Shown here one piece after another: positions 19,886 to 26,901 of a stretch of DNA of 64,000 bases; positions within the stretch are counted from its first letter, which is position 1; every line of letters begins with the position of its first letter. The translations under genes and the position numbers were made by a program. Source of the stretch: Kiritimatiellia bacterium (lineage in GTDB: Bacteria > Verrucomicrobiota > Kiritimatiellia > RFP12 > JBMNHG01); assembly GCA_050950285.1 (NCBI GenBank), contig JBMNHG010000008.1, positions 682,001-746,000 of the forward strand. The letters are read 5' to 3'. The notes beneath the pieces were generated by a model. It did not search any database, had not been told where the DNA came from, and was given only the letters and a program-made list of their open reading frames with translations.

Positions 19886-19914
19886 TTGCGGCCATGGGGG
19901 CTGGGCGTTATACT
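19886..19914 (+). promoter_or_regulatory. sigma70-like promoter of the pRiA4b ORF-3-like gene
   Basis: TTGCGG-17 nt-TATACT. Confidence 0.5.
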
Positions 19915-19998
19915 GTCGCCGGTTTGGCTCGCCCGGTGCGGCGTCGCGGGTGCGGCGTCGCGGCGGCGGGCCGCTTGCATCAGGAGAGGAAGACGGTC

Positions 19999-20670
19999 AT
20001 GGAAGCAGAAGCGAAGGCAACGAAACCAACGGAAGCCATGGTGGAAACCATGGTTCTGAAACTGGCTTTGCGGAACACGGGAAGCGTGCGCATGATGGTG
20101 GTGCCGCAATCCCTCACCGTAAGCGACCTCCATGACATCGCCCTGAAAGCCTTCGGTTTCGATGGCAGCCACCTTAGCGTCGTGAACCGCCAGGACGACT
20201 GGATGTCCACCACCTGTTCGATGTGGGATCCTTGTGACGACGACGATGACGACGATGACGATGATGACGATGACGATGGAGACGATGGTGTCTGGACGAT
20301 CTCGCTTGGCGACTTCTTTCCGGCGCGTGGCGTCAAGGCCATGATCGAATACGATTTTGGCGATGGCTGGGAAATCGTCGTGACTCGGATGGCAGACAAG
20401 CCGAAGGCCGAGCCCTTCACCTGCATCCAGTCCAAGGGGTGCAATGCGATCGAGGATTGCGGAGGGGCTTGGAGTTTGGGGTGCCTGTGCGACGGATTGA
20501 GGAAATGGCTTGAACTGTCGGAGCAGGAGCGCAAGGATTTCAAAAACGAATCCATGGATTGGGCGTTTGCCATGTCGGGGATGACCGAAGAGAAGGCGCA
20601 TGCGTTTTTGGACGGCCCCTCGCCGGAGAAGATTACGGCGATGCTCCAGAGATACAGGAAGTCCGGCTAA
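19999..20670 (+). CDS. Plasmid pRiA4b ORF-3 family protein with poly-Asp insert
   Basis: LHDIALKAFGFDGSHL, YDFGDGW, EDCGG motifs; GGAGAGG upstream. Confidence 0.8.
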   Translation: MEAEAKATKPTEAMVETMVLKLALRNTGSVRMMVVPQSLTVSDLHDIALKAFGFDGSHLSVVNRQDDWMSTTCSMWDPCDDDDDDDDDDDDDDGDDGVWTISLGDFFPARGVKAMIEYDFGDGWEIVVTRMADKPKAEPFTCIQSKGCNAIEDCGGAWSLGCLCDGLRKWLELSEQERKDFKNESMDWAFAMSGMTEEKAHAFLDGPSPEKITAMLQRYRKSG

Positions 20671-23266: not shown

Positions 23267-24286
23267 TCAGGCGAACTGGCCGAGGAAGCGGACGTCGTTC
23301 TCGTAGAACATCCGGATGTCGGTCACGCCGTAGCGGATCATGGCGATGCGCTCGATGCCCATGCCGAAGGCGTAGCCGTGGACCTTGGCCGGGTCGTAGT
23401 CCACGTACCGGAAGACACGTGGGTCGACGAGCCCCGCGCCCATGATTTCAATCCATCCGCTCTGCTTGCAGACGGGGCATCCCCTGCCGCCGCAGACATG
23501 GCAGGAGAAGTCCACCTCCACGCTGGGCTCGGTGAAGGGGAAGAAGTGCGGGCGGAAGCGCACGGCCACGTCCGGGCCCATCATCTCGCGGGCGAAGTAG
23601 CGCAGGGTGGCCTTGAGGTCCGAAAGCGACACGGGCCGGGTGTCCACGTACAGGCCTTCGCACTGGTGGAAGTTCGCGCTGTGCGTGGCGTCGGTGGTGT
23701 CGCGCCGATAGGTGCGGCCGGGGGTGATGATGCGGATGGGCGGCGGTTTGGCCAGCATGGCGCGAATCTGCACGGGGGAGGTCTGCGTGCGGAGCAGCAG
23801 GTTGTCGTCAAACCAGAAGGTGTCCGACTCGTCCATCGAGGGATGGTGGTCCGGCGTGTTGAGGGCGGTGAAGTTGTTGAAGCGCGTCTCGATGTCCGGG
23901 CCGTCGGCCACGGTGAAGCCGAGGCGGCAGAAGATGCGGGCGATTTCCGCCGAAACGAGCGACAGCGGGTGGATCGTGCCGCGGTTGGGCCAGGAGCCGG
24001 GGAGCGACCAGTCGAAGCCCTTGCCCGCGGCGGCCGGTGCGGAGGCGAGTTCGAGCTTGCGCGCCTCAAGGCGTCCGGCGAAGGCCGTGCGCCATCCGTT
24101 GACGCGCTTGCCGAACTCGGGGCGGTCGGCGGGGGCGACCTCCTTCAGCTGCTTCATGGCGGCGGGGATGGCCCCGTTGCGCCCCAGGTACTTGATGCGC
24201 GCCTGCTCCAGCGCGTCGGCATGGGTTGCGGCGTCAATCTCCGCCAGCGAGGCGGCCTGCATGGCGGAAAGTCGTTCGAGATCCAT
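23267..24286 (-). CDS. pheS: Phenylalanine--tRNA ligase alpha subunit
   Basis: LLRTQTSPVQIR, DATHSANFHQ, FPFTEPS, GWIEIMGAG, AFGMGIERIAM. Confidence 0.98.
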   Translation of the reverse strand: MDLERLSAMQAASLAEIDAATHADALEQARIKYLGRNGAIPAAMKQLKEVAPADRPEFGKRVNGWRTAFAGRLEARKLELASAPAAAGKGFDWSLPGSWPNRGTIHPLSLVSAEIARIFCRLGFTVADGPDIETRFNNFTALNTPDHHPSMDESDTFWFDDNLLLRTQTSPVQIRAMLAKPPPIRIITPGRTYRRDTTDATHSANFHQCEGLYVDTRPVSLSDLKATLRYFAREMMGPDVAVRFRPHFFPFTEPSVEVDFSCHVCGGRGCPVCKQSGWIEIMGAGLVDPRVFRYVDYDPAKVHGYAFGMGIERIAMIRYGVTDIRMFYENDVRFLGQFA

Positions 24287-24310
24287 AGGTATTCTCCTGC
24301 GTAGCGCGAC

Positions 24311-24339
24311 ATCATACCCGCACCCCCGTCCTCCCGCAA
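24311..24339 (-). promoter_or_regulatory. pheS promoter
   Basis: TTGCGG-17 nt-TATGAT on the minus strand, followed by AGGAG RBS. Confidence 0.65.
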
Positions 24340-24391
24340 TTCAAAAGGGCGGCGCCTCCTGCGTCGGGGCGCATCTCCGTTTTGCTACCGG

Positions 24392-25648
24392 CTACGCTGG
24401 GACTGCTGCCTGGGCGCAGCAGTGGTGGAGCTCCCCGTTGACGTACCATATGTACGCCTTCAGGAATGACTCGAGCCCGACTGCGGACCAGAACTGGCCG
24501 CACCGCTTGAAGCGGTTCTGCAACTGCGAACAAAGCGATTCGACCGCGCCGCTTCCGATGGGGCGCCCCAGCCTGCGCTGCCTGAGGTAGTCCATGTGGT
24601 CCTTGTGCTTCATGAAATATTCCGTCTCGCGTTGCACGGGCTTCGCGTCCCAGCATCCGTCGCCTTCGTGCGCCTTGAGGATGTCGAGCAGCGTCTTCCC
24701 CCCGTACCGCTTGAGTTTCCTGCAACGCTCCGAGAGCCACGCCTTTCGCGCGGGCTCGTCGTCCGGGAAGAGCGCCGCGGCGAGCGCGCCGAGATGCTCG
24801 GTGGCGTGGTAGTAGTCCAGCGTCCCTTCGGCGATGGTGGCGAACCTGTCCTCGAAGATGTTCCAGAGGTAAGTGCCGCCGTCCATGACGATGTAGACGA
24901 ACTTCGCCTGCATCATCCCCATCCGCCGCGCCTCGAATTCGACCTTCCGGCCGAAGTCGACCGGATCCGTGCCGGCCGGCATGCAGACTGCGTGCTTGGT
25001 GACAAGCACGCGCCTTCCCCCGCTTGTCTCCGCGGCGTGGGCGAGCTTGAAGATTGTCGCCGACTTCATCTCGCGCCATTCCACGCGCTCGGCGGCTCTT
25101 GGGTTGCGCTTCCCCCATCCCGCCCCGCGGTGCCGGGCGAACCAGCCGTCCATCATGATCACCAGCGTGTCCTCGCTCCCCGCCGCCTCCTCGCAGAGCC
25201 GGGGAAGCTTCCCTTCCTCGCAGCGCCCGGCGATGTCCCTGACGACGTCCATGACCTTGTCGTCGCTGACGGGGCACCCCCATTCCCTGCAGAGCTTCGA
25301 GGCTTTCTCGAACGATCCCGTCTCCATGGCCGTCGCCGCGATCCTCATCTCGAACGCGGGGGAGACGCAGCCGCGCCTGCCGCCGAAAAAGCGCAGGCGC
25401 ATCGGCGTCTCGTACCGACCGGACGACCGGCAGAGCCCGTTCTTCACTTTCAGTTCAACCGGCCCGAACCCGGTCGCGACCCTCATGCCGATCGTCCTGG
25501 TCTTGACGAGCGGCTTCCCGTCGCTTCCCTCGGAGGGGGTGCTCTCCGCGAGCCTCTGCAGGTAGTCTTCGTACTCCCTGCGGGCCAGTTCCATGTGTTT
25601 GCGCTGGATTGCCTTTTCGGCTTCGATCAGGTTTTTGCAGGTTTCCAT
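24392..25648 (-). CDS. ISKra4/UPF0236-type DDE transposase
   Basis: IMMDG, VMDGGTYLWN, LDYYHATEHL, PIGSGAVES motifs; lies inside the terminal IRs. Confidence 0.9.
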   Translation of the reverse strand: METCKNLIEAEKAIQRKHMELARREYEDYLQRLAESTPSEGSDGKPLVKTRTIGMRVATGFGPVELKVKNGLCRSSGRYETPMRLRFFGGRRGCVSPAFEMRIAATAMETGSFEKASKLCREWGCPVSDDKVMDVVRDIAGRCEEGKLPRLCEEAAGSEDTLVIMMDGWFARHRGAGWGKRNPRAAERVEWREMKSATIFKLAHAAETSGGRRVLVTKHAVCMPAGTDPVDFGRKVEFEARRMGMMQAKFVYIVMDGGTYLWNIFEDRFATIAEGTLDYYHATEHLGALAAALFPDDEPARKAWLSERCRKLKRYGGKTLLDILKAHEGDGCWDAKPVQRETEYFMKHKDHMDYLRQRRLGRPIGSGAVESLCSQLQNRFKRCGQFWSAVGLESFLKAYIWYVNGELHHCCAQAAVPA

Positions 25649-25658
25649 TGTCTTTCCT

Positions 25659-25714
25659 TCCTTTCGCGCTTGATACTATAGCATTCGAATGCTATAGTAT
25701 CAAGCGCGAAAGGA
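25659..25714. promoter_or_regulatory. Perfect 56-bp palindrome forming a symmetric bidirectional sigma70 promoter and RBS
   Basis: TCCTTTCGCGCTTGATACTATAGCATTC|GAATGCTATAGTATCAAGCGCGAAAGGA; each strand reads TTGATA-17 nt-(TGc)TATAGT...AAAGGA. Confidence 0.85.
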
Positions 25715-25722
25715 GAAACCAG

Positions 25723-26019
25723 ATGGAAAAAGACACCTCAGGCGATGAAGAGAAGATTCGTGCCATCAAAGAGCAGATCGTGGCTCTCGGGCCCATGCGC
25801 CCCGGACGGCTCAGCGTGCAATACCAAAAGCCCAAGGAGAAGGCCGGGCCGTTCTACCAGATCAGCTACACGATCCAGAAGCGAAGCCGCTCGGACTATG
25901 TACGCGAAGCCGATCTGGAACGTGTGAAGGCAGAACTCGAAAACTACCAGACGTTCAAGCGCCTTTGCGAAGAACTGGTTCTGGCCTCGCTGGCACTGGC
26001 AAAGTCGCGACAACGCTAG
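25723..26019 (+). CDS. 98-aa IS accessory protein, DUF6788-like
   Basis: LGPMRPGRLS..Y....GPFYQISYT...S.YV....RVKAELENYQTFKRLCEE resembles small ORFs accompanying ISKra4 transposases; AAGGAG RBS. Confidence 0.75.
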   Translation: MEKDTSGDEEKIRAIKEQIVALGPMRPGRLSVQYQKPKEKAGPFYQISYTIQKRSRSDYVREADLERVKAELENYQTFKRLCEELVLASLALAKSRQR

Positions 26020-26107
26020 CCCCTCAAAACCTGCCCCAGTCTTCCCGATGGACGAGGTGGGGAGCAAAACGGAGATGCGCCCCCTGCGTCGGCGCCTGTC
26101 TTCGCGA

Positions 26108-26135
26108 TTGCGAAAACGCGGGGGACGTGTATACT
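26108..26135 (+). promoter_or_regulatory. nudC promoter (probably leaderless transcript)
   Basis: TTGCGA-16 nt-TATACT, 7 nt before ATG 26143, no SD sequence. Confidence 0.55.
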
Positions 26136-26142
26136 TTCCGGC

Positions 26143-26901
26143 ATGGGGAACGTGCTGTTCCATGACGGGAAAGTCTGGGCGTCGCCATCGGCGGATGGCG
26201 GCGCGCGCATCGTGTTTGAAGGCGGGAGGGCGGTGGAGGAGGTCGAGCCCGGCCTCGGCGTGGGCGAATGCGCCGACGCGCCGGCGCCGGGAGCGCGGCA
26301 GGTGGATCTCCGGTCGTTGTTCGACCAGGTGCCGGAAAAGGACTTCCTTCTTGCGAGCCGCGGGTCGCAGCTCCTTCATTGGCGCCGGACGAACCGCTTC
26401 TGCGCGGTTTGCGGCGCGCCGCTGGCGCGTCATCCAAACGAACACGCCATGTACTGCGCCCGGTGCGGCGCGCTGGTCTATCCGCGCGTCAACCCGGTGG
26501 TCATCGTGCTGGTGCATGACGGTCCCCGGCTGCTGCTCGCGCGCAAGGCCGGCGGCGTGCTGCCGTTCTGGAGCCTTCTCGCGGGATTCGTCGAGGCGGG
26601 GGAGGATCTGGAGTCGGCGGTCGCCCGCGAAATCCGCGAGGAGGTCGACATCGCCGTCCGCGACATCCGCTACGTCCGGAGCCAGCCTTGGTCGTTCCCC
26701 AACAATCTCATGATCGCGTTCACCGCGGCCTACGCGGGCGGCGTCGTGCGCCCCGACGGCGTGGAGATCGCGGAGGCGGGCTGGTTTTCGCGCGAGGCCC
26801 CCCTCCCGCCGATCCCGGGCCCCGTGAGCATCGCGCGGCGTCTCATCGACGGCTTTTTCCACGCATCCGGCCCCCCTCCACACCCACCCATTTTGCCATG
26901 A
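26143..26901 (+). CDS. nudC: NAD(+)/NADH diphosphatase
   Basis: Zn ribbon RFCAVCG...CARCG..YPR, Nudix box AGFVEAGEDLESAVAREIREE, SQPWSFP. Confidence 0.93.
   Translation: MGNVLFHDGKVWASPSADGGARIVFEGGRAVEEVEPGLGVGECADAPAPGARQVDLRSLFDQVPEKDFLLASRGSQLLHWRRTNRFCAVCGAPLARHPNEHAMYCARCGALVYPRVNPVVIVLVHDGPRLLLARKAGGVLPFWSLLAGFVEAGEDLESAVAREIREEVDIAVRDIRYVRSQPWSFPNNLMIAFTAAYAGGVVRPDGVEIAEAGWFSREAPLPPIPGPVSIARRLIDGFFHASGPPPHPPILP

Follow-up and report, generated by a model that had tools for sequence, protein, structure and literature searches.

What role could a perfect 56-bp palindrome play between the two genes of an insertion sequence (IS), and how did it come to be there? In the window, as we call the whole stretch of 64,000 nucleotides analysed here, such a palindrome sits between a transposase ORF on the minus strand and a small ORF of 98 amino acids on the plus strand. 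The initial annotation saw in it a mirror-image promoter, with a Shine-Dalgarno (SD) core at each end, acting as a symmetric switch. The IS spans positions 24367-26082 (1716 bp), is ISKra4-like and has four genomic copies; loose ends of public contigs terminate at 24366/24367, matching its left edge. Its parts are as follows:

24358..24366, no strand: left 9-bp target-site duplication (each of the four copies has its own perfect 9-bp duplication)
24367..24389, plus strand: terminal inverted repeat at the transposase 3' end, 23 bp (repeat search)
24392..25648, minus strand: Mutator-like (ISKra4-like) DDE transposase, 418 aa (NF033572, PF06782)
25659..25714, no strand: perfect 28+28 bp palindrome (inverted-repeat search)
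25723..26019, plus strand: DUF6788 protein, 98 aa, proposed dimeric autorepressor (PF20586, 47.8 bits, cut-off 27.2)
26060..26082, minus strand: terminal inverted repeat at the DUF6788 3' end (repeat search)
26083..26091, no strand: right 9-bp target-site duplication (copy comparison)

The palindrome is exactly as first described, with two arms of 28 nt (25659-25686 and 25687-25714) that are 100% complementary and a loop of 0 nt. It is the longest perfect inverted repeat of the 4.05-Mb genome when loops of 0-10 nt are considered; its 28-nt arms recur in the C11 copy, the next longest repeat has 22-nt arms, and by simple arithmetic perfect arms of 28 nt have a chance of about 4^-28 per position. 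The palindrome is a real feature. A fold-back artefact of the assembly, against which a check with reads had been proposed, is unlikely because the flanks are two different intact genes, because all four copies share the same layout, each with its own target duplication, and because short-read contigs from three DNA runs traverse the centre. Perfect-allele contigs span it in runs X3 and X13, and two contigs of X13 share a 30-nt overlap across it. In favour of an artefact, the palindrome interrupts De Bruijn contigs, none of which has the 31 letters on either side of the centre that served as the bar for bridging; but the four copies have distinct flanks, two of them are imperfect, and the palindrome centre is also the centre of the family operator in 54 aligned loci, and we regard a fold-back as barely credible. 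The proposal to look for the palindrome in other copies gave a divided answer: the layout is the same in 4/4 copies, but only C8 and C11 carry the perfect palindrome, C6 and C2 having a C at the position of 25698.

The best family for the transposase is the ISKra4 HMM NF033572 (154.8 bits, E 3.6e-45, below the cut-off of 205), and it also has a PF06782 match. Among 40 homologues, D256, D278, H281 and E370 are invariant and D167 nearly so, and conservation assigns the roles of the DDE triad to D167, D256 and E370. According to the text of PMC3942029, Mutator-like (p-MULT) IS have an insert of 99-138 aa between D2 and E, terminal repeats of 18-39 bp with a terminal C and target duplications of 8-9 bp; here 114 residues separate D256 from E370, and the four copies combine 23-bp repeats with 9-bp duplications. 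The same source places the signature C/D(2)H 11-19 aa after D2, whereas the invariant D278-x-x-H281 stands 22 aa after D256. The element is a Mutator-like IS near ISKra4 and, by the HMM, should not be filed as ISKra4. It resembles the p-MULT 4 group (ISKra4, ISAzba1, and ISMich2; Guerillot 2014, PMC3942029) in its Mutator-like DDE transposase, 23-bp ends, and 9-bp duplications, and also in that some members of that group have extra ORFs of unknown function. It differs in its score under the ISKra4 cut-off, and the passages of PMC3942029 on the group mention no divergent small regulator or operator. The window transposase is a single frame with no split. Twelve relatives (L046-L050, L055, L057, L059, L063, L064, L067, and L074) have it in two frames (-1), split at an A-run near the N-terminus, at about codon 50, and a split at an A-run in some relatives recalls ISMich2 (PMC3942029); in L052 and L105 the transposase is split in the other frame.

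All 59 of 59 members of our alignment of the small protein match PF20586, a family with 2107 representatives at 50% clustering. The AlphaFold2 model (pLDDT 92.8) has a helix (residues 6-21), three strands (29-60), and a second helix (62-97), and the predicted pI is 9.4, with a family median of 10.3. Structure searches returned nothing significant, either with the whole model (best Z 7.9, to helical hairpins) or with the central domain, for which AP2 6sy0 (Z 4.1, rmsd 3.8, 48 aligned) and the integrase arm-binding 3jtz (Z 3.8, rmsd 3.8, 50 aligned) scored below a PH domain (Z 5.0). Foldseek returned no match at E<=0.001, the best hit of a PDB sequence search had E 0.42, PHROGs gave nothing useful and the ESM Atlas only DUF6788 or unnamed clusters. 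We infer from the genomic pattern, the charge and the modelled topology that DUF6788 would bind DNA. In two proteins (P0171 and P0199) DUF6788 is fused to a pRiA4 ORF3-like domain (PF07929), which is known as an accessory ORF of the ISAzba1 group (PMC3942029); the window also encodes, at 19894-20670 (plus strand), a pRiA4 ORF3-like protein that stands alone and contains a long acidic stretch.

Which parts of the palindrome do relatives keep? The divergent layout had been taken as unusual for ISKra4-type elements. Among 112 loci with a relative of the transposase, a sample biased to close relatives whose divergent set includes two copies of the window element, the small gene is divergent in 67, co-directional in only 10 and absent from 35, and divergence is, on these sequences, a trait of the clade. 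The long palindrome is absent from all 60 other spacers inspected, and in nearly all of them a short repeat takes its place, corresponding in the window to

25675..25698, no strand: putative operator-like core (TAGCA-N6-TGCTA), with half-sites 25675-25683 and 25690-25698 and a 6-bp spacer

In the 54 loci compared, symmetry is restricted to this 9+9 bp core with its unpaired 6-bp spacer. Counted by offset from the centre, pairing reaches 85-98% at offsets 4-9 and 65-81% at offsets 10-12, and is near expectation at the central three pairs (33-57%) and at offsets 13-21 (13-41%), as also over offsets 13-30; the count includes two mis-centred loci (L008 and L010) that the arm-origin (51 loci) and promoter (52 loci) counts below leave out. 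Both-side changes occur at offset 6 (0.96 versus 0.69 expected) and offset 10 (0.72 versus 0.37 expected). Judged from this alignment, the symmetry of the relatives is shaped like a protein-binding site with two half-sites, not like a hairpin. The core is found nowhere in the genome outside the four IS copies. Inspection of the relatives showed no covariation between it and their terminal repeats. A -35 on the DUF6788 side is present in 39/54 loci and its mirror in only 2/54, one of them the window element; the -10 core occurs on the DUF6788 side in 39/54 and on the transposase side in 30/54. Full mirror symmetry as a conserved design thus finds no support in the relatives. No complete element above ~50% transposase identity was found in 401+401 genomes (overlapping samples) or in a metagenome scan. 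Transposase proteins with 84% (P0002) and 79% (P0003) identity exist; the closest relatives with a complete spacer have transposases only ~50% identical, so that the steps of the arm copying proposed below are not directly visible. With this query, no relatives were found in viral contigs, and one plasmid record has a relative, at 36% identity.

The palindrome follows DUF6788, neither the transposase nor the orientation of the genes. A repeat score of at least 8/9 was obtained for 46/59 divergent loci (12/15 below 60% identity), 4/9 co-directional loci and 10/24 further DUF6788 loci, versus 11/150 host genes and 2/13 transposase relatives without DUF6788 (the 13 of 19 listed loci with a usable start; both positives lie inside an upstream gene). 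The co-directional ISKra4-like elements thus lend modest support to an operator. In a wider set of DUF6788 loci outside the clade, the repeat beats shuffles (p<=0.05) in 43/72, versus 5/70 host genes, these controls being more GC-rich than the DUF6788 loci (45% versus 36%); below 50% identity 30/51 do so, and 29/72 overall have no significant repeat. This set leaves out three duplicates, two truncated starts, nine members of the divergent clade, four uncertain starts and loci with less than 65 nt upstream. The transposases beside DUF6788 include IS66, IS4-like, IS701-like, IS1380-like, IS1634, and Tn5-like ones, and many neighbours have no family match. The type of half-site tracks the DUF6788 tree and residue 29 (T/S, H, L, or R), but kin are not independent and kinship alone could explain this agreement.

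A promoter scan of the window element found a sigma70-type promoter, TTGATA-17-TATAGT with a TG, on both strands (plus strand, 25670-25698; minus strand, 25703-25675), with 10/12 matches each and 3 sites per 1.9 kb versus 0.3 in shuffles. As sequence, the mirror promoter with both SD cores is therefore present as the initial annotation had it:

25670..25698, plus strand: predicted DUF6788 promoter (-35 25670-25675, TG 25690-25691, -10 25693-25698, start ~25705)
25675..25703, minus strand: predicted mirror transposase promoter (-35 25703-25698, -10 25680-25675, start ~25668)
25698, plus strand: polymorphic base (T in C8 and C11, C in C6 and C2)

The two predicted -10s are separate and 12 bp apart, the predicted starts are ~37 bp apart, and each -35 abuts the opposite -10. 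By comparison with the relatives, the DUF6788 promoter is the ancestral and conserved one and the mirror -35 is lineage-specific. In the 52-locus comparison, for which we used promoter weights of our own, the best DUF6788-side -10 lies at the window's offset in 38/52 loci, and the best transposase-side -10 lies at the mirror offset in 9, overlaps the DUF6788 -10 in 20 and stands 2 bp further out in 8. A transposase -35 with at least 5/6 matches falls within codons 1-3 of DUF6788 in 37/52 loci; in 22 of these a -10 core stands at a distance of 16-18 bp. Ser2 is encoded by TCA in 22/22 loci, versus 28/320 of the other Ser codons. Relatives of the L004 type have start codons of the small gene that encode the -35 of the opposite-strand transposase promoter. 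In the relatives the transposase promoter thus appears to lie mostly elsewhere than at the mirror position. The left half-site remains symmetric (at least 5/6) in 20/22 loci lacking a -10 core there, so promoter symmetry alone is insufficient to account for the repeat. With the same weights, the window element has the highest transposase-side promoter score of the 52 loci.

How, then, did the long arms arise? Two segments of the palindrome betray opposite origins:

25699..25703, plus strand: segment probably copied from the left arm, the reverse complement of part of the -35 (46/51 loci fit the left arm better)
25659..25669, plus strand: segment probably copied from the right arm, the mirror of the DUF6788 leader and SD at 25704-25714 (37/51 loci)

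The latter segment has at least 9/11 matches in 17 right arms versus 0 left arms of relatives. This comparison shows the window palindrome as a two-way mosaic of left- and right-derived segments, and the short operator with the DUF6788 promoter as the ancestral state. The arms would have copied each other in both directions, probably by template switching during replication, a process that perfects imperfect repeats in Escherichia coli (PMC7202029) and expands promoter repeats in yeast (PMC13100816), in both cases as those texts report it. Through such copying the symmetry would have grown to 28 bp and the ancestral transposase promoter would have disappeared, its place taken by a mirror of the DUF6788 promoter; in the promoter comparison, the ancestral transposase -10 is lost from the window element through arm expansion. 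A loop-less palindrome of 24+24 bp also occurs in an unrelated IS4-like element whose DUF6788 gene is divergent (L112 and L142-L147; G370). It is identical in 6/6 copies, and its central -10 serves both directions, each strand having its own -35. Arms of 13-16 bp are present upstream of several other DUF6788 genes, some of them co-directional. Since the IS4-like palindrome is independent and such arms occur elsewhere, expansion around the operator is recurrent, and these sequences show a bacterial promoter apparently rebuilt by arm copying twice independently, in the window and in the IS4-like element. The mirror promoter of the window element is probably real, but a derived state of a repressor-operator module and no separate kind of switch.

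The module that we favour, and consider probable, is a two-gene IS with a brake: a dimer of DUF6788, which we propose to be a small basic DNA-binding protein, would sit on the core and repress both genes, the long arms having arisen by arm copying. The dimer would occupy the two half-sites, 6 bp apart, over its own -10 and over the transposase -10 or start, closing a negative-feedback loop in which DUF6788 represses both genes and counts copies in trans. The comparative pattern suggests that the small gene is a self-limiting brake on transposition. Binding of the palindrome by a dimer of the small protein, one of the options first put forward, is the one favoured by the comparative data, through the symmetry over 54 loci and its co-occurrence with DUF6788, while cruciform gating is not needed, given that relatives lack the long palindrome.

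Could the symmetry of the promoters suffice, with no protein bound? Back-to-back extended -10s would then compete for the polymerase, and DUF6788 would be an accessory transposition factor. The half-site does double as an extended -10, reading TG-n-TAnnnT in many loci, with the frequencies of the -10 core on the two sides given above, so that part of the signal can be put down to promoter symmetry; none of the structural matches establishes that DUF6788 binds DNA, and bidirectional promoters arising from -10 symmetry are common (bioRxiv 10.1101/2020.01.31.928960). We nevertheless consider this unlikely as the whole explanation, as the symmetry is kept in the loci whose left half cannot be a -10 (20/22), positions outside the sigma70 consensus are conserved on both arms, and repeats also stand upstream of DUF6788 genes without a divergent partner. 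Moreover, at the five bidirectional promoters tested in PMC12825309, basal activity was too low for polymerase competition, a result that also weakens the proposed mutually exclusive expression, unless the window promoters are strong.

A rather improbable alternative is that the full 56-bp structure was selected, as a cruciform gate or as an RNA hairpin hiding the SD in host read-through transcripts. Protection of the transposase from outside transcription is known from IS10 and IS50. In its favour, each arm runs as far as an SD core, the RNA hairpins have predicted energies of -45.9 kcal/mol (plus strand) and -47.3 kcal/mol (minus strand), the C allele leaves the transposase-strand hairpin unaltered through a G-U pair, and a second long palindrome arose independently in the IS4-like element. 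However, relatives function without long arms, with offsets 13-30 pairing at about expectation, the IS4-like palindrome ends short of both SDs, any transition yields a G-U pair on one strand, and the transposase has another SD-like AGGA that the arms cover only in part. Finally, the palindrome might duplicate the end-binding site of the transposase inside the element and be bound by this enzyme, not by DUF6788, in line with a half-site-like TGCTAC in the inner part of the left terminal repeat of the window element; we hold this to be very improbable, because by inspection the terminal repeats of relatives neither carry nor co-vary with the half-site, transposase relatives without DUF6788 mostly lack the repeat (2/13), and similar cores stand beside unrelated transposases.

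The polymorphic base bears on how the DUF6788 brake may vary among copies. With a C at 25698, the DUF6788 -10 loses its final T and the palindrome is no longer perfect. The key bases of a sigma70 -10 are positions 1, 2, and 6; T25698C loses one of them for the small gene and in the mirror -35 alters the final base only. Copies with the C would make less repressor while keeping the transposase -10. That two of four copies damage only the -10 of the small gene speaks against balanced expression as the function of the palindrome. The transposase comes in two haplotypes that differ by seven linked changes within 100 bp (window 24640-24740), with one amino-acid change, a pattern that suggests recombination with a diverged copy, and the allele at 25698 is independent of them, all four combinations being present among the four copies. 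Nearby, the A at 24872 is absent from all four runs examined and may be an assembly error. At least half of the element's words occur in 19 public DNA runs; among the three examined, the C allele is present in X1, which may be the source sample, and in X13, where the insertion site is different, and absent from X3. An RNA run (X20) yielded two pieces of the 3' half of the transposase only, at a depth of about 4 and with starts and strands not resolvable.

A bolder and, in our judgement, improbable reading is that T25698C and arm copying form a reversible flip of each copy between braked and unbraked transposition, a phase variation built on a portable DUF6788 cassette. T25698C would perfect a nested 12-bp palindrome and silence the repressor promoter, and copying from the long arm would restore the T. 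Both alleles occur on both transposase haplotypes, and X3 has the C6 insertion site and both haplotypes with no C seen, at low depth; none of the four copies or the three DNA runs shows the corresponding mirror change on the transposase side. The same allele pattern would also result from gene conversion between copies or from mis-phased assembly. If true, DUF6788 with its operator would be a portable repressor cassette common to many unrelated IS families, and in divergent elements the operator would seed long perfect palindromes acting as mutational switches.

Small dimeric regulators on a palindrome over overlapping divergent promoters are familiar from TetR/tetA and MerR/merT, and small IS proteins that repress the transposase from IS1 InsA and IS3 OrfA. 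DUF6788 differs from all of these in having no HTH family match and a predicted fold with a three-stranded sheet between two helices, and from InsA and OrfA also in that its divergent orientation precludes a frameshift fusion with the transposase. In Tn3, the tnpA and tnpR genes are divergent with their promoters between them, at res, where the product of the second gene binds and represses both (PMC7157771). The likeness lies in the divergent transposase and second gene and in the regulation from the intergenic region that we propose for DUF6788; the differences are that DUF6788 has 98 aa and no recombinase match, that its single 24-bp site contrasts with the multi-site res, and that no resolution function is evident in the window element. 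The bidirectional promoters described by Warman et al. (bioRxiv 10.1101/2020.01.31.928960; PMC12825309) have a shared -10 and divergent starts 7-25 bp apart. As with these, the symmetric DNA of the window should admit one polymerase at a time, and the relatives, with starts ~15 bp apart, and the IS4-like element, with its shared central -10, both fall within the 7-25 bp class; the window element, with its separate -10s and more distant predicted starts, falls outside it.

The Tn3-like regulatory logic is thus already known, and the function is proposed for an uncharacterised family. In the non-subscription literature searched, neither the name DUF6788 nor any account of an IS having a divergent small ORF, a palindrome and autoregulation was found; such elements may nonetheless be described in ISfinder, in subscription papers or in the PMC3942029 supplements. 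Novel in this work are the derived origin of the mirror promoter, the concealment of the ancestral promoter within start codons, the convergent rise of a second palindrome, and the allele at 25698. A large uncharacterised family would gain a precise and cheaply testable function, that of a repressor with a predictable operator beside several unrelated transposase families; arm copying, twice independently, would have let the transposase inherit a copy of its repressor's promoter; and the natural one-base allele offers a ready-made test of whether copy-to-copy variation tunes transposition.

Several further observations concern the surroundings and kin of this element. In the window it sits between the divergent pheS and a NudC-like gene (24286-26143), ~25 bp upstream of the predicted -35 of the latter, and in the C2 copy a -35-like hexamer stands 17 bp from the IS end, reminiscent of the promoter targeting of ISKra4. 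One relative (L001:2242-3200) is decayed by two internal deletions, one of which took the whole spacer and both gene starts; we considered a swapping of IS ends in L001 and rejected it, the similarity being only a chance one between near-identical ends and L001 an internally deleted derivative without the spacer. Two close transposase relatives (L006:2691-3539 and L092:1054-1956) have a co-directional upstream DruA-like ORF (PF14236), not DUF6788. The genome also carries a second Mutator-like IS family in five identical copies (in the C1:42763 region of G000 and at four sites on C2, C3, and C4), whose co-directional DUF6788-like ORF ends at an A9 run, possibly giving a frameshift fusion, and whose promoter has its own, different 8+8 bp repeat. 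REP-like hairpins with arms of 19-22 bp occur at no fewer than six sites of the same genome (G000, e.g. C10:10933-10979 and C8:341698-341748).
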